A stretch of DNA of 10,663 nt, from the IMG/VR virus record IMGVR_UViG_2802429253_000003; one strand, written 5' to 3'. Source of the DNA: a virus. Its lineage: Duplodnaviria; Heunggongvirae; Uroviricota; Caudoviricetes. Every line of letters begins with the position of its first letter. Position 1 is the stretch's first letter. A model generated the notes under the pieces. It searched no databases and was not told the DNA's origin. It was given only the letters and a program-made list of their open reading frames with translations. The translations under genes and the position numbers were made by a program. Positions 1 through 10,663 of the stretch are shown one piece after another.

Positions 1-818
1 CTATTAATATAGTATACTATTCCTCCGTCAGCCATCAATTGACATGGAATACATTCTACATTAAGACGATAATTTATTTCTGGCTATTACTTCTTGTTTC
101 TTCATGTTTTTTTATTAAAAATTATTCAAAAATATGGTTTTGCATTAGCTTTATCAGCATTGCTCTAGCATGTGATAACTTAATATTATTGCATTTTATG
201 GATTCACGTTATCCTATATGGTATTGGGCCAAAGGGCTTGAACTAGCATCCAGCTTATATATCATATGCACTCTAATGTATTTTATATTTTTGAAATTAA
301 AATATTCAGATTATCTGGCTTCACACGATTTTTTAACTAACACTTATAATAGAGGTGGTTTTTTAAATGCCTTCAAGACAATATTAAAAAATAACAATAA
401 TAATTCCATTTGTGTATTAATGCTCGACATTGATCACTTCAAGAAGATAAATGACCAGCATGGACATCACACTGGAGATATAGTAATAAGCACAGTAACA
501 AAAATTATTGCAAAGACAATCAGGAACAAAGATTTATTCGGCCGACTTGGAGGGGAAGAATTCGCCATTGTATTCAATGATCTTTCATTTTCTCAGATCT
601 CAGCAATCAGCGAAAGAATAAGAAGGAATGTTGAAGTGAAAACACAAAATCTTACTGTTAAATATGGGGTTGAAAGAGTCACTATCAGCATAGGTGGGTT
701 CATCACTCTTTCAAATAAACTCATGCCTTCAGAAATCTTGGCTCAAGCAGATGAATCGCTATATGAAGCCAAAAGAACTGGCAGAAACAAGGTAATCATA
801 CATAGCGAGATATCATAG
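1..818 (+). CDS. Membrane-anchored GGDEF-domain diguanylate cyclase, probably 5'-partial
   Basis: The ORF track starts it at a TTG at nt 39, but the frame has no stop between nt 1 and 39 and no Shine-Dalgarno precedes the TTG, so the gene most likely starts upstream of the window. The N-terminal ~90 aa is hydrophobic (about three predicted TM helices). The C-terminal ~165 aa has GGDEF hallmarks: GGEEF active-site motif (nt 549-563), an RxxD I-site (RNKD) five residues upstream, and an LDIDHFKKIND metal-binding stretch. Very AT-rich, Asn/Lys/Ile-rich codon usage, unlike the adjacent phage genes. Confidence 0.85.
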   Translation, partial: INIVYYSSVSHQLTWNTFYIKTIIYFWLLLLVSSCFFIKNYSKIWFCISFISIALACDNLILLHFMDSRYPIWYWAKGLELASSLYIICTLMYFIFLKLKYSDYLASHDFLTNTYNRGGFLNAFKTILKNNNNNSICVLMLDIDHFKKINDQHGHHTGDIVISTVTKIIAKTIRNKDLFGRLGGEEFAIVFNDLSFSQISAISERIRRNVEVKTQNLTVKYGVERVTISIGGFITLSNKLMPSEILAQADESLYEAKRTGRNKVIIHSEIS

Positions 819-862
819 CTATTTAGTGGCAACAGACGATATTATACTTACTGATCATTAAA

Positions 863-894
863 CCGCAGCATATTACCAGTATAATTTGCTGCGG
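863..894. terminator. Perfect 8-bp inverted repeat (ccgcagca / tgctgcgg) with a 16-nt AT-rich loop between two convergent coding regions; possible weak terminator
   Basis: Seen directly in sequence. It lies 45 nt after the stop of the GGDEF gene and 19 nt after the stop of the tfa-like remnant. On the minus strand it is followed by TTTAAT. The loop is long and the U-tract poor, so termination is uncertain. Confidence 0.3.
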
Positions 895-912
895 AATATA
901 ATTAACTAGTTT

Positions 913-1041
913 TCAATTAGCTGCAGGAATGAGAGGCCACTCAGTATCCGGTGCAGTTGATGTATCAACACGGTTCAGCAACACCCGATACTTCTTCCAG
1001 GCTTCCAGCAACGAGGTTTCGCCCTCCGTTGCATATACAGC
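913..1041 (-). pseudogene. tfa: 3'-terminal remnant of a tail fibre assembly gene (Tfa C-terminal domain only, no start codon)
   Basis: The minus-strand frame translates to [42 protein letters not shown] then stop (TGA at 913-915). This matches the conserved C-terminus of lambda-type Tfa proteins as I remember them (..[29 protein letters not shown]..). It is bounded upstream by an in-frame stop at 1042-1044 and has no start codon or RBS. Confidence 0.6.
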
Positions 1042-1050
1042 TCACCTTTT

Positions 1051-1374
1051 TCACCCGCGATTAACCAACAGCCAGACCAGCAGACACGCCACCACCGGCA
1101 CAGCAAAATCCATCAGGCTTGCCACATCCCATGCACGTGGATCAAAACCGCCCCACCACGGCATGTTAATCCGCTTGCCATGCCCGAACATTTCAATCCA
1201 GCGATATTCTGCCTGGGTGTGTTCCCGCGCAATGAAGAATGTACAACCGGCTATCGCCCCGTAAGCCCAGTTTCCGGTAAAAAGACCAACCAGTACCTGC
1301 GCAGCCACAGCACAAAGCGCATGAAGAAAAGGTGTTATATCCATTTTCATCCTACCCAATAAAACGGGGCGCAT
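1051..1374 (-). CDS. Small hypothetical inner-membrane protein (about 97-107 aa, two predicted TM helices, Trp-rich connecting loop)
   Basis: ORF with two hydrophobic helices (ITPFLHALCAVAAQVLVGLF and FAVPVVACLLVWLLV). It starts 11 nt after the stop of the upstream 346-aa gene, preceded by an AAGGG Shine-Dalgarno-like element. Alternative internal starts exist at codons 9 and 11. GC near 55 percent. The plus-strand ORFs overlapping it have implausible composition. No family recognised. Confidence 0.6.
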   Translation of the reverse strand: MRPVLLGRMKMDITPFLHALCAVAAQVLVGLFTGNWAYGAIAGCTFFIAREHTQAEYRWIEMFGHGKRINMPWWGGFDPRAWDVASLMDFAVPVVACLLVWLLVNRG

Positions 1375-1385
1375 AGCCCTTAATA

Positions 1386-2426
1386 TTATTTAGACGCAAG
1401 CGTCGCCTCAATTGCAGATAATCTTTGCCTTAATTCTGCGTTTTCTTCTTCCAGTACTGTTATTCTGTCGTCTGACTCTCTGGCTACCTGAACAAGCAAG
1501 CCAGTAACACCAGAATAATCTACTGTGTAATAACGTTCACCTTCTTCACCTTCCGATCCGCTTGCACCGTCCTGATATTTCATTGCGGAACCTACAACTT
1601 CTGGGATTGCTTCCAGAGCTTCCTGTGCAATGACACCTGCATAGGGCATACCGTTTTCTTTAAGCGTGTATGTATAGCCGTTCATTTTACGGATGCGGTC
1701 GGTTGCATTATCGATCACCTGAATGTTGTCTTTCAGATCCCGGTCAGAATGCTGGTTAAATGCGGTGGCATGACATGCACCATTAACGCTTAACATATAG
1801 GTGTTATCGGTATTTTTCTGCGCATAGAACATATACGCGCCACCATCAGCACCAACTTCATATACAACCGGACGGGTAGAGTTACCCCACAAACTAGTAG
1901 TAGCGCCAGAATGAGCGGTCCCCTGTGTGTTTAATGTCATGGTTGACCCATGATTGGCATATTTGATTTGTAATGTGTCTGTGCAGTCAAACTTAATAAG
2001 CGCGTTACTTCCCCGCACACCATACGACATGAGACAGTTCCCCATCTTAAGGTAACCATCACTGCCTGGAAAAATTAATGTTCCGCCGTAAAGATCGCTA
2101 AAATCCCAAAAGATACCTTTTGTTCCATTGTGTGTGACAATCCTTGTCATTGTATCTTTTGTACCGTCAATATTTTTTCTGGTGTACATCTCACTATAAG
2201 CGTTTTCGGTTTCTCCTGTCTTATTTGACAAGTGAATCTTACCGCTAAATATAGTTCCAGTGGTCGGCAATGTCTTTTGATCATAGATTACATTGCAATA
2301 ACTATTCCATGTTGTTTTATTGTCTACATATGATTTTGTTGCGTAGCTCCCTTGATCGTTTTTTAATTTGCTAACGTCGGATTTTAGCGTTTTGATATCA
2401 TCAGGAATTACTGTCGATGTAGCCAT
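1386..2426 (-). CDS. Tail fibre / fibre-tip protein with C-terminal peptidase-S74-type intramolecular chaperone (autoproteolytic) domain
   Basis: The C-terminal ~120 aa (HSDRDLKDNIQVIDNATDRIRKMNGYTYTLKENG...GVIAQEALEAIPEVV...YTVDYSGVTGLLVQVARE...LEEENAELRQRLSAIEATL) has the hallmarks of the endosialidase-type chaperone domain: an S-D-x-x-x-K Ser/Lys dyad context (Ser227 codon at nt 1746-1748, Lys232) and a terminal coiled-coil. The N-terminal ~225 aa is Gly/Thr/Asn-rich and beta-like, consistent with a receptor-binding domain. Strong RBS (GAGGAAGG) 9 nt spacing from the upstream ORF; GC lower than the core phage genes. Confidence 0.8.
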   Translation of the reverse strand: MATSTVIPDDIKTLKSDVSKLKNDQGSYATKSYVDNKTTWNSYCNVIYDQKTLPTTGTIFSGKIHLSNKTGETENAYSEMYTRKNIDGTKDTMTRIVTHNGTKGIFWDFSDLYGGTLIFPGSDGYLKMGNCLMSYGVRGSNALIKFDCTDTLQIKYANHGSTMTLNTQGTAHSGATTSLWGNSTRPVVYEVGADGGAYMFYAQKNTDNTYMLSVNGACHATAFNQHSDRDLKDNIQVIDNATDRIRKMNGYTYTLKENGMPYAGVIAQEALEAIPEVVGSAMKYQDGASGSEGEEGERYYTVDYSGVTGLLVQVARESDDRITVLEEENAELRQRLSAIEATLASK

Positions 2427-2435
2427 TTTCCTTCC

Positions 2436-2717
2436 TCACATCCAGCCACGAAGTTGATGCTCAACAGCAACCGCGTATTCATCGAATAATGACGATATTT
2501 GCGAATCATTAATGATGCGCACGTTTACAAAATATCCGTCCTCCTTAACACATACCGGCTCGCCATCTTCAGTAAGTTCTCCGGTTTCTTTGTACACATT
2601 ACCTATCACGTCAATAAGAATATCATCCTGCATCGACTCGTCATCATAATAGCCAATACTCTCCATAAAGGCCGAAAAGTCGGCCCTGTCGGCAAATTTG
2701 AGTGTTAAATCTTTCAT
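2436..2717 (-). CDS. Small, highly acidic hypothetical protein (93 aa) translationally coupled to stf
   Basis: Its ATG (2715-2717) overlaps the stf TAA stop (2717-2719) as TAATG. By my count it has about 21 Asp/Glu against 7 Lys/Arg. It sits where tfa is found in lambda but has no Tfa-like motifs. No family recognised. Confidence 0.55.
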   Translation of the reverse strand: MKDLTLKFADRADFSAFMESIGYYDDESMQDDILIDVIGNVYKETGELTEDGEPVCVKEDGYFVNVRIINDSQISSLFDEYAVAVEHQLRGWM

Positions 2718-5092
2718 TAGATTGACTCCCCCATCTGAGCATCAGTCAATGCCTTGTGCCATATTCTGAAATTCCTGACATGACCAAATAAATGACGTAA
2801 CCCGGCTGTAGTCTGGCCTCCAATACGGATAATTGCGGTGTTCTGAATACAGGACCATGTGGTTTTTGTTTCGCTGGATATATGCCCGTTACTTACTGAG
2901 CACGTAGACTGCTCTGACTTTACACGCATCCCCATAACCATTTTTTCAAGCGATGCGTTTTCGTTTACCCGTCTGTTAGCTCCTCCAATATCGCAATAAG
3001 GAAATCCGTCATAATCTGTTGAACGACCGAAGCCAAGAATAATAGCCGCTCCGGTTTGATGACCGCCGGTATCAAAAACACGCGGTGCTGCATTTGGCGT
3101 TTTATACCAGTTCTTATGTACCTCACAAAGAACTGTAAAAGGAAGATTATAAAGGTTATTCTTGATTGGGACTGTCACCATATCGCTTGCGCGAGTGCTT
3201 GCAGTTATATCAGTTACAATAAATGACGAAGCACTTGATCCACCTTCCACTTGTGGAGTTGCGATATCCAGATAGTCTCCAGATGCTGTGCCTGAACCTT
3301 TTACTGGAGCATATTGAACCATCGCACCAATCATGCTCTCTGTATCTAGTGCATTAATTGTAGCCTGATAGAAAATCCAACCAGTAGCCTCATCTTTTAC
3401 AGCTTTTGCAATAATACGATTTGCTGCACCACCAGTCTTATCAATTACAAGTGTTGATAAATTGAGGTAAGCATCTCCCAAAAAAGTGTAAGTAGAACCA
3501 TCATGATGTTCAAATCTTAAACGACACCTTATATTTTCAACATCACTTCTGACACGGCATGAAATGGTCACATATTTTTCATCACCTGTGACATCAAATC
3601 CTTTACTGCCAGAAACCGTTACGATATTAATCGCACTTGTCTGATCAATAAGAGTATCTTTTACAGTAAATCTCCCATAAGTAAAATTAAAAGAATCCGT
3701 GGATATTTCTGTGAGTTCCAGATTGCCTGACTTATTCCATTTAGATGGATTTGTTGAATTAAGCAGAAGATTAGTTCTTTGCCCCTCAATAAGCAGGCCA
3801 TCACGTTCAAATCGCGGCTCGTCAATGGCAGCCTCTGTCAGTACACCAGATTTATTAATATAGGTTGCTTTCGATGCGCGTTTAAACTTTACAATCTTGT
3901 CGCCAGGCATTGTTATTTCATCGTCGCCAATAACAATTTTTTTATATGATGGCGAAAAGCCCGTAATCATATCCAGTGAATCGTTAAACGGTATCCACAC
4001 ATCAGGAAGCGGCTGTAAGACATATTTATACGGCTCTGCTGCCTGGCTTGCGTACTCCCTGGCTGCGTCTTCGCTTGCTTTAGCTGCCGTCTGGCTTGCT
4101 GCCGATGCTTTCGCTGAGTTATCCGCCGCAGTCTCGCTCGCCTTTGCGTTGGTTTCACTGGTTTTTGCAGCTTTTTGACTGTTGGCTGATGCAGTGGCAG
4201 AAGAAGCCGCCGCACTTGCAGAACTGGCTGCGGCACTCTCGCTTTCAGCTGCTGCATCCTGACTGCTTTTCGCCGCAGTTTCACTGGCTTTGGCATTCGT
4301 TTCGCTGGTCTTCGCTGCCGTCTGGCTGGACTTTGCGTTAGTTTCACTCGTCTTCGCAGCTTTCTGGTTGTTAGCCGCAGCAGTTGCTGATCCAGCTGCT
4401 GAAGTCGCAGAACCGGCTGCCGCGCTCTCGCTTTGGGCTGCTGCAACCTGGCTGTTTTTTGCCGCAGTTTCACTGGCTTTAGCATTCGTTTCGCTGGTCT
4501 TCGCTGCCGTCTGGCTGGACTTTGCGTTGGTTTCGCTCGTCTTTGCGGCTGTCTCGCTATTTTTCGCGTTGGTTTCTGATTTTTTGGCTGCTGTCGCGGA
4601 GTTTGCTGATGCAGTCTGTGAGGCCGCTGCCGCCTGTGCACTATTAGCTGCATTCGTTTCTGAGGTTTTCGCCGCGTTCTTCGATGATGCCGCTGCAGTT
4701 TCTGATTTCTTTGCCGCCGCTGCGCTCTGAGAGGCGGCTTCAGCGTTGCGTGCCGCTTCTTCCACCATTTCCTCAAAACGACGCAATGCCTCCGGCATGA
4801 CATCATCTTCCGTCATGGCACCGAGAAAATCATTCAGCGTACCTGGTCTGGAACCTTCATAGACGGTAATGGTCCCGGCATGTGAAGGCGGAAAACCTTC
4901 AACCAGCAGGATGACGCTGTACTGGCCATACTCAACATCCATGCTGTAACGCCCGGCTTCATCCGGATTTTCAGAGGCCACCGTGTTCACCAGTACCGTG
5001 GTGCTGTTACGTTTTGCTTTCAGCTGGATTGTGCAGTTCTGTACCGGTTTTCCTGTGCCGTCTTTCAGTACACCTGAAATCTTTACTGCCAT
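2717..5092 (-). CDS. stf: Side tail fibre protein Stf: lambda-like N-terminal domain, Ala/Ser/Thr-rich repeat shaft, divergent distal domains ending in a putative LamG-like lectin fold
   Basis: N-terminus MAVKISGVLKDGTGKPVQNCTIQLKA... matches lambda Stf as remembered. The ORF track begins at GTG 5098, but the ATG at 5092 gives the lambda-like MAVK start with GGGGTGA upstream. The central region is repeats of the type AAKTSETNAKSSQTAAKTSETNAKASETAAK. The last ~110 aa end in ...GHVRNFRIWHKALTDAQM, resembling the C-terminal signature of LamG/concanavalin-like jellyroll domains. Confidence 0.9.
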   Translation of the reverse strand: MAVKISGVLKDGTGKPVQNCTIQLKAKRNSTTVLVNTVASENPDEAGRYSMDVEYGQYSVILLVEGFPPSHAGTITVYEGSRPGTLNDFLGAMTEDDVMPEALRRFEEMVEEAARNAEAASQSAAAAKKSETAAASSKNAAKTSETNAANSAQAAAASQTASANSATAAKKSETNAKNSETAAKTSETNAKSSQTAAKTSETNAKASETAAKNSQVAAAQSESAAAGSATSAAGSATAAANNQKAAKTSETNAKSSQTAAKTSETNAKASETAAKSSQDAAAESESAAASSASAAASSATASANSQKAAKTSETNAKASETAADNSAKASAASQTAAKASEDAAREYASQAAEPYKYVLQPLPDVWIPFNDSLDMITGFSPSYKKIVIGDDEITMPGDKIVKFKRASKATYINKSGVLTEAAIDEPRFERDGLLIEGQRTNLLLNSTNPSKWNKSGNLELTEISTDSFNFTYGRFTVKDTLIDQTSAINIVTVSGSKGFDVTGDEKYVTISCRVRSDVENIRCRLRFEHHDGSTYTFLGDAYLNLSTLVIDKTGGAANRIIAKAVKDEATGWIFYQATINALDTESMIGAMVQYAPVKGSGTASGDYLDIATPQVEGGSSASSFIVTDITASTRASDMVTVPIKNNLYNLPFTVLCEVHKNWYKTPNAAPRVFDTGGHQTGAAIILGFGRSTDYDGFPYCDIGGANRRVNENASLEKMVMGMRVKSEQSTCSVSNGHISSETKTTWSCIQNTAIIRIGGQTTAGLRHLFGHVRNFRIWHKALTDAQMGESI
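4083..4740. repeat. In-frame tandem direct repeats inside stf (189-bp period, at least two full copies, within a broader degenerate short-unit repeat region)
   Basis: Near-identical DNA at 4276-4340 and 4465-4530 (offset 189 nt, 63 codons), and again at about 4143 versus 4332. These encode the Ala/Ser/Thr-rich shaft repeats of Stf. Confidence 0.8.
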
Positions 5093-5103
5093 ATTCACCC
5101 CAC

Positions 5104-5130
5104 AAAAAAGCCCGCCTGAACCGGCGGGCT
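5104..5130 (-). terminator. Intrinsic terminator between lom and stf
   Basis: Minus strand reads AGCCCGCC-GGTTCA-GGCGGGCT followed by TTTTTT: an 8-bp GC-rich stem, 6-nt loop and U-tract. The U-tract runs directly into the stf ribosome-binding region (GTGGGGTGAATATG). Confidence 0.6.
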
Positions 5131-5156
5131 GTCATAACACTGTGTTACCTGGCTAA

Positions 5157-5756
5157 TCAGAACTTATAACCGACACCCACGATGAAACCGTCAGTGCGCC
5201 AGTCGCCACTGCCGGAGCCTTCATAAGCAATATCAATGGCCACGGATTCGGTCGGGTTAAACTGCACGCCAGCTCCCCACGCCAGAGACGTGTTGCTGTG
5301 GCGACCGTCATCACTTCCGGTCAGCACATCGTGCGTTTTCCCCTTGTTGTCAGTTACGCGAAGATAATCCCCGGAGAAAGTCGACACACGGCTGTAAGCC
5401 ACACCCGCCATCGCATACGCGCTGAACCATTCATTCACGCGCACAGACGGCCCCGCCATCACGCTGAACCAGCGGTTACGCACGGAATCTTCATGCCAGC
5501 GGGTATCGCTGTAATGGGTTTTTTGCTCATCTTTGGCATTGGCATAACTGAATGACGTCACCAGCCCCAGCGTGTCCGTAAATTCATAACGGTATTTCAC
5601 GTTAATGCCCTTCAGGTCATCACTGCCTGGCATATCAGTATGGGTCTGAAGATACCCGGCGCTTAGTGTGGACTGATGCTCTGCTGCGCTCGCTGGCGTA
5701 CCAGCGGCAACCAGCCAGACTACTGCGGACAGAATAACAGCACATAATTTACGCAT
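5157..5756 (-). CDS. lom: Lom outer-membrane protein (Ail/Lom/PagC/OmpX family beta-barrel)
   Basis: 199 aa with an N-terminal signal peptide ([24 protein letters not shown]) and the typical C-terminal ...[10 protein letters not shown]. Near-identical to lambda Lom as remembered. RBS GAGAGGT upstream of the ATG. Confidence 0.93.
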
Positions 5757-5780
5757 AATTACCTCTCGCTTTTCTGCAAT

Positions 5781-5804
5781 AAAAAAGGCGTCATTTCTGA
5801 CGCC
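5781..5804 (-). terminator. Intrinsic terminator downstream of J (position corresponds to lambda tJ)
   Basis: Minus strand reads GGCGTCA-GAAA-TGACGCC followed by TTTTTTATT: a 7-bp stem, GNRA-type tetraloop and U6 tract. It lies between the J stop (5824) and the lom RBS. Confidence 0.6.
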
Positions 5805-5823
5805 CGTATTGGGGTTATAAAAT

Positions 5824-8800
5824 TCAGCTGATACTGATGCCTGCGGTGGCTTTCTTCATCACCACAACCAGCAAATCGCTGATACTTGCTGTGGGATACC
5901 AGTTATTTACCAGCCATGCTGACACCGAAAACTCCAGTGTCATGTGACCGTGACCGGCAGGCATATCAATAACGCCACTGTAAATCAGCGTATTATCCAG
6001 CGCGGTACGGTTATAAATTTCAGCACCGTTTTTCCGCACTATCAGACGGCATGAGGAGTAAATATCAGTATGCTCTCTCTCATGCTTAGCGCCACTGAAT
6101 GCCACCGCCGGAATAACAATTTGCCGGTCAAACGGCTGATCGTCATAAACCCTGACGGTAATGGTCCCTGATGGCCACCGCTCCGGTGCTCGGGAGTCAC
6201 GGGGGAAAGCTTTGCCCACTGTTTTAACGAGATCGCCTTCAATCTGGTTCGCGGACAGTTTTCCCAGAACCCGACAGTTCTCGTTAATCGTGACGTTGTT
6301 GAGCGTCCCGGAGTTCGCATTCACGTTACCGCTGATATCGGCATTTTTCGCCGTCAGCCGCCCGTCCGGCGTCAGGGAAAATGCAGGAGGATTACCGCCG
6401 CTGGTGATGGTCGGGGCCGTCAGACGCTTCAGGAACACGTCGTTCATGAATATCTGATCGCCCTGACCAACAAACATCGGCTTTGTGTTGCCATTCGCAG
6501 GATTAATCATCGCAATCCTGTCCGCCGCCAGCAGCACCTGACTCTGCATACCGTCAGGAGTATTCTCAATACCGGCACCAATACCCGCGATATAAAGGCG
6601 TCCGTCCTGCATCTGCTGCAGCTTCACAGCCCACATGCTGTTCAGGTTATTATTTGTATCAACCTGAACCTTCTGTATCTGCTGGATCGCTGCACTCTGG
6701 TCTTCCAGTTTCTTATTGACGGTCTGCGTGATTTCATTGCTGACACCCGTAATGGACGTCCTGATTTCAGCCAGGTCAGGCGCAAGCTGACCGTTATCAA
6801 TCTGCGTCCACAACTCCTGAGCCAGATGGGTTTTCCCTATCTCTCCTTTGAAAAAATTCAGATAGCCGGATGCATCATCACTCGGCTGGCCAACAGCCTC
6901 CACAAATGCCGATTTGCCAACGGTGTTCACACTGCGGATGTAAAAATAATAATCATGGCCCGGTTTGATATTGATACTGGCGGCTATCCAGTACAGCGCC
7001 GTGCCAAGATAGCGTGCTGTGGTTTCAACCTGCCTGATATCCGCAATCCGCTTTTCCGAGAACCAGAACTCAAACTGTACCGTCGGGTCATAAACCGCAA
7101 GATGCGGCGTGGCGGTTATCTGAAAATAGCCCGGAGTCAGCTCAATCTGTGACGGCGCTGCCGGTGCGGCAATCCGGAACGATACCGACGCCGGGTCTCC
7201 CTGCTGCCCCCAGGCATTTACTGCCCGGACTGTCAGCCTGTAGTTCCCCAGCGCCAGCTGCCTGAAGCGGTATGTTGTTTCCGTCGTCCGGGCCGTGCTG
7301 ACCAGCCGCTCACTGCCGTCGTCCGCTGTTACGGTCAGACGGAGCAGGAAGCTCACGCCCTTCACCACCTTCGGTGTGTCCCATCGCGCCAGCACCTGAT
7401 ATTCCCCGCTGTCTGCATTGACTTCTGCGGTCAGGTGCTGCACCGCGGGCGGCGTGACACCGTTCACCGTTCCGCTCTGGTCGCCGTCAAAGTGCGCCCC
7501 GTTATCCACGATGGCTTCTTTCTCCGGTACATGCTGCACGGCAGTGATGGCATACGTGCCGTCATCGTTCTCACGGATACTCACGCAGCGGAACAGGCGC
7601 TGGCGCAGCGTCGGCAGCTTCAGCCCCCACACGCTGTATTCTGCAACGCCGTCAGGAACACGACTCACTTTCACCTTCACGCCGTCGGTGACGGACTGAA
7701 CCTCCACGCTGACCGGATTACCACTTCCGTCAACCAGGCTTATCAGCGTGGTACCGGAGGATGGCAGCGTGATTTCACGGTCGAGCGTCAGCGTCCGGGT
7801 CTGGCTGTTCACCGCCAGCACGCGACCACCGGTGCTGATACCGGCATAGTCATCATCGCAGATTTCAATAACATCGCCCGGCACATGGCGAAGCCCTTCT
7901 GCGCCCACGCTGAAATCCACGGTCTGCGTCTCCAGCAGTTCCGTTTTAATCAGCCACAGCCCGGCGCGGTGTGCCTGCCCCCGGCTGGTACAGCCAAAGG
8001 CATCCATCTTCGTGACATTACGACCGTAACGGGCAATGGCCTGCGTATCTTCAACAAGCTCTGTCGCCGTCTCCCAGCCGTTATTCGGGTCAATCCAGTT
8101 CACCTCAACGGCATTATGGCGGTCCTTCAGGGCGCTGAAGCTGTAGCGGAACGGCGCGCCATCATCCGGCATCACCACATTACTGCGGTTATAGGTCCAC
8201 ACCTTATCCGACGGTCGGTCCTGCACGAACGTCAGCGTCTGCCCGTTCCATACCGGCATACAGCGCATCGCCGAGCAGAAATCGCTGAGAACATCCCACG
8301 CCTTACGCTGCGTGGTCAGGTAAGCGTTACAGGTGATGCGCGGCTCCGTGCCACCAAAGCCATCCGGCACCGACTGGTCGCAATTCTGGCCGATGACATA
8401 CAGCGCCCATTTATCCACATCCGCTGCACCAAGACGTTTCCCCATGCCGTAGCGCGGATGGGTCAGCATATCCCACAGACACCAGGCCATGTTGTTGCTG
8501 TATGCCGGTTTAAACGTTCCGTCCCAGATACCGCTGTATTGTCGCGTCTGCGGGTTATAGTTCGACGGCACCTGCAGAATGCGCCCGCGCAGATGATAAT
8601 TACGGCTCACCTGCTGGCTGCCGAACTGCTCCGAATCCACCTGCACGCCGACCAGTGCCGTGTTCGGGTAGCACTGTTTCACATCGATGATTTCGGTGTA
8701 TGACGACCAGAGCGTTTTGTTCTGCAGCTGGTCTGTGGTGCTGTCCGGCGTCATCCTGCGCATCCGGATATTAAACGGGCGCGGCGGCAGGTTACCCACC

Positions 8801-9303
8801 ACCACCGAGGCCAGATACTGCGAGGTGGTTTTGCCCTTAATGGTGATGTCTTTTTCCGTCACCCAGCCACCGTTACGTTGTATCTGAACCAGCAGGCGGA
8901 CTTCCGATGGATTCCTGTCCCCCTTTGAGGTGGTTTCCACCAGTGCCTGCACACCGAAGGTAAAACGCAGACGGTCGATGTTTGCCGACGTGATGGTCCG
9001 GGTGATCGGCGTGTCGTATTTCACTTCCGTACCCAGTACCGTCTCGGAACCTGATGATTCAAATCCCTCCGGCGGTGTCTGCTCCTGCTCACCTGCCCGG
9101 AACACCACCGTGACACCGGAGATGTTGGTATTCCCCTCACTGTCCAGCACCGGTGTACTGTTCAGCAACACGCTTTTTAATCCATCCCCCGGACCTTCAA
9201 TCGGCCCTTCGCTGATGGCATCGATCACACTCAGCAACTGCGTGGATTTCAGGTTGTCCTTCGCTTCGCGCGGGGTATGCCCCTTACTGCTGCCTTTACC
9301 CAT
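5824..9303 (-). CDS. J: Tail tip / host specificity protein J (central tail fibre)
   Basis: 1159 aa. The N-terminal ~800 aa ([38 protein letters not shown]...) is recognisably lambda J. GGAG Shine-Dalgarno about 9 nt upstream of the ATG. The C-terminal part appears more divergent from lambda J as I remember it. Confidence 0.95.
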
Positions 9304-9325
9304 TCGTCATGCTCCATAAACGACA

Positions 9326-9345
9326 AAACCGCCCGGAGGCGGTTT
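9326..9345 (-). promoter_or_regulatory. GC-rich hairpin in the I-J intergenic region (AAACCGCC-CGGA-GGCGGTTT)
   Basis: Seen in sequence: 8-bp stem, 4-nt loop. On the minus strand it is followed by TGTCGTTTAT and then the J Shine-Dalgarno. It lies inside the late operon, so it is more likely an RNA structural or attenuating element than a full terminator. Confidence 0.3.
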
Positions 9346-9363
9346 CACATAAAATATTTTGCA

Positions 9364-10011
9364 TCATCGACCAATCACCACAACCTGACCACCATCCCCT
9401 TCGTCTGCCGTGCTGATCTCCTGAGATACCACGCGTGACCCCACGCGCATTTCACCGTACAGAACGGGCAGAACATTCCCCTGGGCAACCATGTTATCCA
9501 GTGAGGAGAAATACGTGTTCTGTTTGCCGTTATCCGTTGTCTGTGTGCGGGGAGTTCTGGCTTTCGGTGCCAGCATCTGCGCCACACCGCCCAGGATCAT
9601 ACTGGCCCCTACCGCATACATACCCGATACAGCCGCGACACCCAGCCAGCCCACAGGGTTCCACCATGCCACCGCAATCAGCGCAGCCCCCAGCACTGCC
9701 TGAAAAACACCGCCACTTTTGGCACCCGCCAGACGCGGTACGATGTGGATCACGGCACCATTTGCCAGCGGCTCATTAAGACGGGCAGATAATTCGTTTT
9801 CGCCTGCATCACGCCCGGCAATGCGCACCTGATACCAGCCCTCATTCAGTTTCTGACGAAACGCCGGGAGCTGCGTGGCCAGCGCCCGGATAGCTTCGGC
9901 TCCCGTTTTCACACGAAGGTCGATGCGGTGGCCAAATCGTTGCAAATCCCCGTAAAGGCAGATGCGTGCCATGCCCGGTGACGCCAGAGGGAGTGTGTGC
10001 GTCGCTGCCAT
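9364..10011 (-). CDS. I: Tail assembly protein I
   Basis: 215 aa. N-terminus MAATHTLPLASPGMARICLYGDLQRFG... and C-terminus ...VLPVLYGEMRVGSRVVSQEISTADEGDGGQVVVIGR match lambda gpI as remembered. The start lies inside the 3' end of K. Confidence 0.9.
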   Translation of the reverse strand: MAATHTLPLASPGMARICLYGDLQRFGHRIDLRVKTGAEAIRALATQLPAFRQKLNEGWYQVRIAGRDAGENELSARLNEPLANGAVIHIVPRLAGAKSGGVFQAVLGAALIAVAWWNPVGWLGVAAVSGMYAVGASMILGGVAQMLAPKARTPRTQTTDNGKQNTYFSSLDNMVAQGNVLPVLYGEMRVGSRVVSQEISTADEGDGGQVVVIGR

Positions 10012-10652
10012 TTGTCGGTATACCTCTCTCGTTTGCTCAGTTGTTCAGGAATATGGTGCAGCAGCTCGCCGTCGCCGCAGTAAATGGCGGCATGATTCGG
10101 CACCGATGAACCAAAGCAGCACAGCAGCACATCGCCCGGCTGCGCCTCTGTCAGTGCGGCACGGTAAAAACCAGTCGCCTCCATATTGTCAAGATAGAGA
10201 TTCTGGCCGTTACGCCACCAGTCATCCCCGCGATGAAAATCCGGCATCTCAATTCCCGCCAGATGGTAAGCGTCCCGGAACAGCGTGTAACAGTCCGTCA
10301 CCCCGTGCTCAAAGCGCCGCCCGGTGAGATGCGGCACACAGCGGAACTTATGAATCGCCCCCCGGCAGACCAGCCACCACGGCAAATCACTCTGCACCTG
10401 CAGCCGCCGGTCGGCCTCACTCAGCCAGGGCAGACCACCGGGATGACTGTGGACCAGCGCCACAATCTCACCCTGCATTTCTGCCTGCAGCCAGTCCTCC
10501 GGCGACATCCGGAAATAATCCTCCGGCTCACCGGAAATATTCACGCAGGGAAAATATCTTTCCCCCTCCGGCGTTCTCACCACGAAGCCGCACGACTCCG
10601 CTGGCGCACATCGCCGGGCGTGCGCCAGAATCGCTGATTCTGTCTCTGTCAT
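9909..10652 (-). CDS. K: Tail assembly protein K (MPN/JAMM domain plus NlpC/P60-like domain)
   Basis: 247 aa. JAMM motif HSHPGGLPWLSEAD (H-x-H-x7-S-x2-D) and a C-terminal NlpC/P60-like Cys/His context (GVTDCYTLF ... NHAAIY). It overlaps I by 103 nt in another frame, the same overlap length as I recall for lambda. Confidence 0.9.
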   Translation of the reverse strand: MTETESAILAHARRCAPAESCGFVVRTPEGERYFPCVNISGEPEDYFRMSPEDWLQAEMQGEIVALVHSHPGGLPWLSEADRRLQVQSDLPWWLVCRGAIHKFRCVPHLTGRRFEHGVTDCYTLFRDAYHLAGIEMPDFHRGDDWWRNGQNLYLDNMEATGFYRAALTEAQPGDVLLCCFGSSVPNHAAIYCGDGELLHHIPEQLSKRERYTDKWQRRTHSLWRHRAWHASAFTGICNDLATASTFV

Positions 10653-10663
10653 GGGATTTATAT

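Follow-up and report, generated by a model that had tools for sequence, protein, structure and literature searches.

Does the AT-rich reading frame that runs into one end of a viral sequence, beside its tail fibre genes, belong to a working diguanylate cyclase carried by a prophage as cargo, and is that cyclase DgcX? The question is raised by the window, by which we mean the whole 10,663-nt stretch of tailed-virus DNA analysed here (IMG/VR record IMGVR_UViG_2802429253_000003). We consider it very probable that positions 1–818 belong to the gene of a 447-residue inner-membrane cyclase of a sister clade of DgcX, which would make c-di-GMP and lies as attR-proximal cargo in a lambdoid prophage at the Rac site (ttcA/uspF).

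The cyclase fragment and its missing 5′ part

The plus-strand frame at 1–818 opens at nt 3, runs off the left edge of the window and meets its first stop at the TAG at 816–818. Its 816 nt form the 3′ part of a diguanylate cyclase gene and correspond to codons 177–447 of a 447-codon MASE4–GGDEF gene, that is, to the C-terminal 271 residues or about the last two thirds of the protein; the lack of any stop from nt 3 agrees with the preliminary description, in which the frame was called open to the edge and its N-terminus incomplete. Profile searches revealed a complete GGDEF catalytic domain at 318–791 (PF00990 positions 1–161 of 161, E = 2.3e-42; fragment residues 106–263) and a match to TIGR00254 with 145.9 bits against a cut-off of 37.4 (E = 8.9e-43). 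None of the NCBIfam equivalog models reached its own cut-off with the fragment. Within the domain, the I-site RNKD (RxxD; 522–533) stands five residues before the A-site GGEEF (549–563) in the stretch RNKD-LFGRL-GGEEF, and the two sites align with R359–D362 and G368–F372 of PleD, respectively. Two further early claims, that of a GGDEF protein with intact GGEEF and RxxD motifs and that of a GC content far below that of the phage genes, were thus borne out, the former by Pfam, NCBIfam and the motif positions and the latter by values of 0.323 for 1–818 and 0.519 for 935–10663. The frame is not a product of chance, since it stays open over 272 codons in DNA of 32% GC and reaches the profile scores given above.

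Upstream of the catalytic domain, the C-terminal third of a MASE4 domain was recognized at 6–290 (PF17158, E = 2.7e-08 with a score above the gathering value; the match covers profile positions 142–236, the final 95 of 239, and fragment residues 2–96), with predicted helices 6, 7 and 8 at approximately nt 51–113, 129–197 and 216–299. PHROGs contains families with GGDEF domains, none of which spans the MASE4 part of the protein. The preliminary description had seen a membrane domain at the N-terminus and no large sensor domain. The hydrophobic part does exist, but it consists of the last three of eight MASE4 helices in a domain that is cut by the window edge; the large sensor domain only appears to be absent because of this cut, and full-length homologues possess a MASE4 of roughly 270 residues with eight helices.

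The part outside the window can be read from close relatives. The protein cluster nearest to the fragment comprises proteins of 446–447 residues, and P0122, annotated in E. marmotae, is identical to the fragment at 269 of 271 residues (two differences). At the nucleotide level, 11 loci (L098–L107 and L109), one of them an IMG/VR contig, were 98.4–98.9% identical to window 1–1361. Nucleotide 1 of the window corresponds to position 10527 of L098, which is nt 527 of the cyclase gene in that locus (10001–11344), and 176 codons therefore fall outside the window. As the full-length relatives have 447 aa and eight membrane helices, the membrane part seen in the window represents the last portion of a large MASE4 sensor domain. 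Eight hydrophobic segments were found in the full-length homologue, and its AlphaFold model (mean pLDDT 81) exhibited eight membrane helices, the last three at residues 193–213, 219–241 and 248–284, followed by a long linker helix and a GGDEF fold. Foldseek comparison of the model with isolated GGDEF domains gave target-normalised TM-scores of 0.76–0.88, and the GGDEF fold deviated from solved GGDEF domains with an rmsd of 1.7–3 Å. Because the first 176 codons and the promoter lie outside the window, we infer the intactness of this copy from its relatives; the fragment itself is real and, judged by its sequence, looks functional.

The PDB sequence matches of the GGDEF domain were PleD, DosC, WspR and DgcZ. 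All catalytic residues and the primary I-site of PleD (PDB 1w25, 2v0n) align with the window protein: the equivalents of D327, K332, N335, D344, E370, K442 and R446 were all kept, as were those of R359xxD362 (RAID) and G368GEEF. The window protein lacks equivalents of the secondary I-site residues of PleD, which are located outside its GGDEF domain, and the two proteins differ in their input, which consists of receiver domains in PleD and of the membrane domain MASE4 in the window-type protein. The catalytic and I-site columns were invariant in an alignment of 11 family sequences, and dN/dS among the E. marmotae, E. coli and E. albertii alleles was 0.08–0.25 in both halves of the gene. Purifying selection of this strength in both halves provides evidence that the cyclase protein was kept functional. 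GGDEF enzymes work as dimers. In a lysogen, the MASE4–GGDEF protein would dimerise in the membrane and convert two GTP to c-di-GMP; MASE4 would presumably supply both the dimerisation and the input signal that tunes cyclase output, and c-di-GMP binding at the I-site would cap that output.

Few expression signals were recognized around the gene. The 3′ flank of the cargo module (819–934) is AT-rich (GC 0.34) and contains a hairpin at 863–894 (CCGCAGCATATTA/TAATTTGCTGCGG) between the convergent genes, which has no T-run after it and a fold z-score of −1.4 and is at most a weak candidate for a terminator, not a canonical one. Scans for consensus promoters and terminators near the cyclase gene gave nothing above chance. 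The window-type homologues share a conserved TGGTATACT, resembling an extended −10 element, approximately 75 nt upstream of the ATG and, nearer to the ATG, an AGGTGG ribosome-binding site by the start codon.

Relation to DgcX and mosaicism of alleles

DgcX is regarded as a horizontally mobile c-di-GMP booster in enteroaggregative and O104:H4 E. coli. We pinned DgcX down by its length of 443 aa, by the GGEEF glutamates at 359/360 and by its location between argW and dsdC; the DgcX mutants and location described for strain Fec101 fit this 443-aa argW–dsdC protein (PMC10459773). The window protein was 51–54% identical to the DgcX proteins encoded at argW and attB (approximately 64% at the nucleotide level), whereas DgcX copies are 94% identical among themselves. 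It was 52–54% identical to a further type, P0010, which itself shares 67% with DgcX, and 80–99% identical to the rest of its own clade. The preliminary description had suggested a comparison with characterised E. coli cyclases, and apart from DgcX this gave 38–40% identity to DgcT and CdgI of K-12. On these identity values, the window gene is placed as a member of a sister clade of DgcX and not as DgcX. The lead to DgcX in the preliminary description thus ended at a paralogue that shares the architecture of DgcX and its type of location, and DgcX was ruled out as the identity of the gene.

The two clades are alike in combining an eight-helix MASE4 with a GGDEF domain, in GGEEF and RxxD motifs and in a GC content of approximately 30%, and members of both directly adjoin lambdoid prophage DNA, within the att boundary and facing a convergent tfa remnant. 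They differ in length (443 aa in DgcX, 447 aa in the window-type clade) and in the upstream region, which is conserved only over a 73-bp stretch with 78% identity. DgcX has been reported from E. coli O104:H4, EAEC, ETEC, SE11 and Fec101 (Richter et al. 2014, PMC4287979; PMC10459773), and the uspF site at which it was reported in SE11 is the one used by the window-type gene (PMC4287979). Its expression is very high and depends on RpoD and RpoS (PMC4287979), a property that should not be assumed for the window clade, because so little of the upstream region is conserved. Overexpression of DgcX raises cellulose production in a manner that depends on the GGEEF glutamates (PMC10459773). The K-12 proteins DgcT (YcdT) and CdgI (YeaI) have the same MASE4–GGDEF architecture, and DgcT also has GGEEF and RxxD; unlike the window gene, however, their genes are chromosomal core or near-core genes with no prophage association (dgcT adjoins pgaA).

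P0010 (444 aa), the third DgcX-like type, was observed in four loci (L114–L117; gene at 8001–9335 in each), where the gene is chromosomal and stands directly after nfrB–nfrA–ybcH and before folD or ompT/envY. NfrB is a c-di-GMP-binding polysaccharide synthase, and phage N4 needs the NfrB exopolysaccharide. P0010 could be a dedicated cyclase of the NfrB system or the relic of a DLP12-type prophage end.

Comparison of alleles by sliding identity and dS revealed an intragenic recombination breakpoint at 500–530, near window nt 510 and just upstream of the I-site. On its 5′ side, the window was 98–100% identical to the E. coli allele P0001 (locus L002); on its 3′ side, within the gene, identity to P0001 was 60–85%, and P0001 was there nearly identical to the E. 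albertii allele. Accordingly, dS between the E. marmotae-type allele and P0001 was 0.03 over residues 1–345 and about 2 from residue 346 to the end, whereas dS between P0001 and the E. albertii allele over the latter part was 0.015. P0001 is thus a mosaic whose 5′ part is of E. marmotae type and whose 3′ part is of E. albertii type (L002 and L111 equivalents), and the dS contrast across residue 345 indicates that the part of the gene with the I-site, the A-site and the C-terminus was exchanged between alleles. Among the E. coli carriers of P0001, many have a split cyclase gene; split copies were observed at 6256–7618 in L121–L124.

Prophage setting and distribution

The tail genes in the rest of the window lie on the minus strand. 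A small membrane ORF at 1051–1374 (107 aa, called as 95–97 aa elsewhere) matched phrog_1443 (E = 8.5e-59) and had no match in Pfam or NCBIfam; it contains three hydrophobic stretches, has homologues also in L007–L017 and always follows an S74-type tail fibre gene, at many integration sites. The side tail fibre is split over three ORFs (1386–5098), namely a 793-aa N-terminal ORF (2717–5098) with phage_tail_N and Ala/Ser/Thr-rich repeats, a 93-aa ORF (2436–2717) and a 346-aa tail fibre ORF with a C-terminal intramolecular chaperone domain (1386–2426; Peptidase_S74, Pfam and PHROGs). The gene for the 793-aa protein contains 189-nt tandem repeats at 4124–4554. In the collection, 308 blocks encode a protein identical to the 346-aa tail fibre, and several integration sites are represented among them; in otherwise near-identical E. 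marmotae-type loci, the 346-aa gene is replaced by a version of 227–234 aa. These genes are followed by lom (5157–5756; Ail_Lom, E = 1.5e-128) and by J (5824–9303), I (9364–10011) and K (9909–10652), the last three assigned from gene calls and from the Pfam families of homologous loci. A search of the window with Rfam gave no match at the gathering threshold. The sole sub-threshold match, IS009 (RF02111; 956–1053, minus strand; 66 bits against a gathering value of 117), probably reflects just conserved prophage sequence, since it coincides with the 3′ remnant of tfa.

This remnant, the last 42 codons of tfa on the minus strand at 913–1041, matches the C-terminus of K-12 TfaR and is convergent with the cyclase gene, as had been described earlier. 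Nucleotide homology to K-12 tfaR and to other E. coli prophages starts abruptly at nt 934/935. In loci of the L098 type, the gene order is ydbH, ldhA, ydbK, ompN, uspF and the cyclase gene, followed on the opposite strand by a 97-aa ORF, the tail fibre genes, lom, J, I, K and L. When L098 was compared with K-12, uspF and the cyclase gene proved to be separated by the Rac attR (ttcC fragment) and by 180 bp of Rac-end sequence. The comparison also revealed an AT-rich module of approximately 2.4 kb (9044–11460; GC 0.35, and 0.31 in the dgc gene within it) that stands where K-12 has pinR–ynaE–ynaM, with tfaR homology resuming at the equivalent of window position 935. Because the Rac-type attR lies beyond the gene, beside uspF, the cyclase gene of L098-type loci is inside the prophage boundary. 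The window ends before attR, and the position between the tail fibre genes and the attachment site was shown in these loci, which are 98–99% identical to it. By this comparison, the cyclase gene is situated in the place of the b region of lambda, which upholds the position proposed in the preliminary description.

The likeness to the b-region genes of lambda and to other tail-end morons of lambdoid prophages (e.g. lom) extends further. Those are non-structural genes of distinct composition that stand beyond or among the tail fibre genes near attR and are freely swapped between related prophages, and the window gene resembles them in this, the alternatives at the same spot being pinR–ynaE–ynaM or a metallo-beta-lactamase-fold gene; unlike them, it encodes a second-messenger synthase. 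All dgcX loci examined had a convergent tfa remnant immediately downstream, and the same dgcX–tfa junction was present at argW and at lambda attB. At the latter site, the att core TTAGTATAAAAAAGC stands between ybhB and dgcX, with dgcX inside the att boundary. In E. albertii and some E. coli, the cyclase gene faces a full stf–tfa operon plus one metallo-beta-lactamase-fold gene. Since the tfa junction is common to two clades that are only approximately 50% identical, we argue that the tfa-convergent arrangement of these cyclase genes is old.

Two neighbouring genes deserve mention. The metallo-beta-lactamase-fold gene (266–290 aa) between the cyclase gene and full-length tfa in E. albertii and some E. 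coli (L111, 9533–10336; L121, 8052–8852; L123 and L124, 8052–8855) matches PF00753 and, faintly, the anti-Pycsar Apyc1 family, and is absent from the window. Its product might be a hydrolase of cyclic nucleotides encoded beside a cyclase. A ykgJ-like CxxCxxCC gene (PF03692, 109 aa) lies upstream of the cyclase gene (L098, 9167–9499; L111, 7168–7497); it is intact only in E. albertii and carries a frameshift and a stop in the E. marmotae-type and E. coli loci.

The two clades differ in where they were found. Of 5,426 complete E. coli genomes, 767 carried dgcX, whereas none gave a megablast match to the window gene and none had window 1–934 at >80% nucleotide identity; the window-type clade was seen in E. 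marmotae, E. albertii and draft assemblies of E. coli. The allele type of the window (RNKD...HSE[IL]S) was seen only in intact form, as the 447-aa proteins P0122, encoded by at least 24 contigs, and P0123. A search of 50,697 phage records gave no DNA match to the window-type gene and no protein match that exceeded 60% identity or spanned 80% or more of the cyclase protein, and the isolated phages were without DgcX as well. Searches of window 1–930 DNA against phage and plasmid collections gave nothing relevant. Two predicted proviruses in IMG/VR hold the window-type gene, at or near the contig end.

Alternative explanations and meaning of the cyclase gene

The other ways of reading the protein fare poorly. 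That the gene is DgcX itself, the cyclase of O104:H4/EAEC, would fit its architecture, its prophage-end location and the report of dgcX at the same uspF site in SE11, but copies of DgcX are far closer to one another than the window protein is to any of them, and we give this explanation next to no credence. The protein might also be a c-di-GMP-binding effector or a scaffold with no cyclase activity, in the manner of CdgI (YeaI), which has the MASE4–GGDEF architecture too, retains just the I-site and binds c-di-GMP (PMC5635695), and to which the window protein is 38–39% identical. Such a role is highly improbable and is rejected on sequence grounds, because the window protein, unlike CdgI, retains GGEEF together with all residues that bind substrate and metal. 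A pseudogene broken in its 5′ part, outside the window, and yielding no functional enzyme is a less far-fetched thought, though still an unlikely one. Many E. coli assemblies contain split copies, in which a MASE4 ORF (154 or 221 aa) is separate from a GGDEF ORF of 205 aa (P0003, P0124); this indicates that the cargo gene decays recurrently in E. coli. The adjacent ykgJ-like gene has already become a pseudogene in every E. marmotae-type or E. coli locus examined. However, the split copies whose sequences were compared all bear the other 3′ allele (RRRD...IYTSD), the intact P0122 and P0123 represent the allele type of the window, and the 271 codons within the window exhibit no defect and a dN/dS indicative of constraint.

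The main rival concerns the origin of the gene, which could be the leftover of an older element or of a small island that used the same att site and became fused to the tail fibre end. In the E. coli locus L002, two 195-bp copies of Rac-end sequence (8834–9028 and 11435–11629), a direct repeat that includes part of the att core, bracket a 2.4-kb cyclase module, and ynaM–ynaE–pinR–tfa of the resident prophage come after the inner copy; this repeat suggests tandem or sequential use of one att site. The absence of the window-type gene from all isolated phage genomes searched, and its presence on just two IMG/VR contigs, there at or near the contig end, also fit such an origin. So does the fact that many prophages at other sites have the window's tail fibre module but no cyclase gene: none of ten prophage contigs encoding the 346-aa tail fibre, all at other sites, had a cyclase. 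On the other hand, window-type loci exhibited a single att copy, which lies outside the cyclase gene, the junction with the last tfa codons is common to dgcX at two other att sites, and the gene of E. albertii and of some E. coli stands behind a full-length stf–tfa operon. A search for a Rac integrase-side arm next to the inner repeat of L002, as a test for a tandem prophage, gave no significant match. We regard an origin as a leftover as possible but improbable, and keep to the reading of an attR-proximal cargo gene of a lambdoid prophage.

As such a cargo gene, the window-type cyclase would, by analogy with DgcX, provide extra c-di-GMP that steers the host to matrix production (cellulose, PGA and curli) and away from motility, and thereby would act as a lysogenic-conversion or cargo gene. 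A much wider reading, which we put forward as speculative and rather doubtful, is that DgcX-like MASE4–GGDEF cyclases form a dedicated cargo family of the lambdoid b region, with three clades or more (DgcX, the P0010 type linked to nfrBA and the window clade), several att sites (at least three or four: lambda attB, Rac/ttcA, argW and possibly the DLP12 end), swapped catalytic halves and a benefit in phage interplay. If this were true, the value to the phage would lie in phage–host or phage–phage interplay through c-di-GMP-dependent surface polysaccharides, and general biofilm promotion would not be the sole benefit; the NfrB exopolysaccharide used by phage N4 is one such polysaccharide, and its synthase gene adjoins the P0010 member of the family.

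Prophage-associated cyclases of the DgcX type have been described since 2014, and the general picture is left unchanged by our analysis. What is new is a second, clearly distinct clade with the architecture of DgcX in the same prophage-end niche, its spread outside mainstream E. coli and its intragenic mosaicism. Surveys of c-di-GMP genes that target dgcX alone would miss this clade; if active, it would give lysogens an extra cyclase, which could alter biofilm formation, motility and perhaps phage susceptibility.
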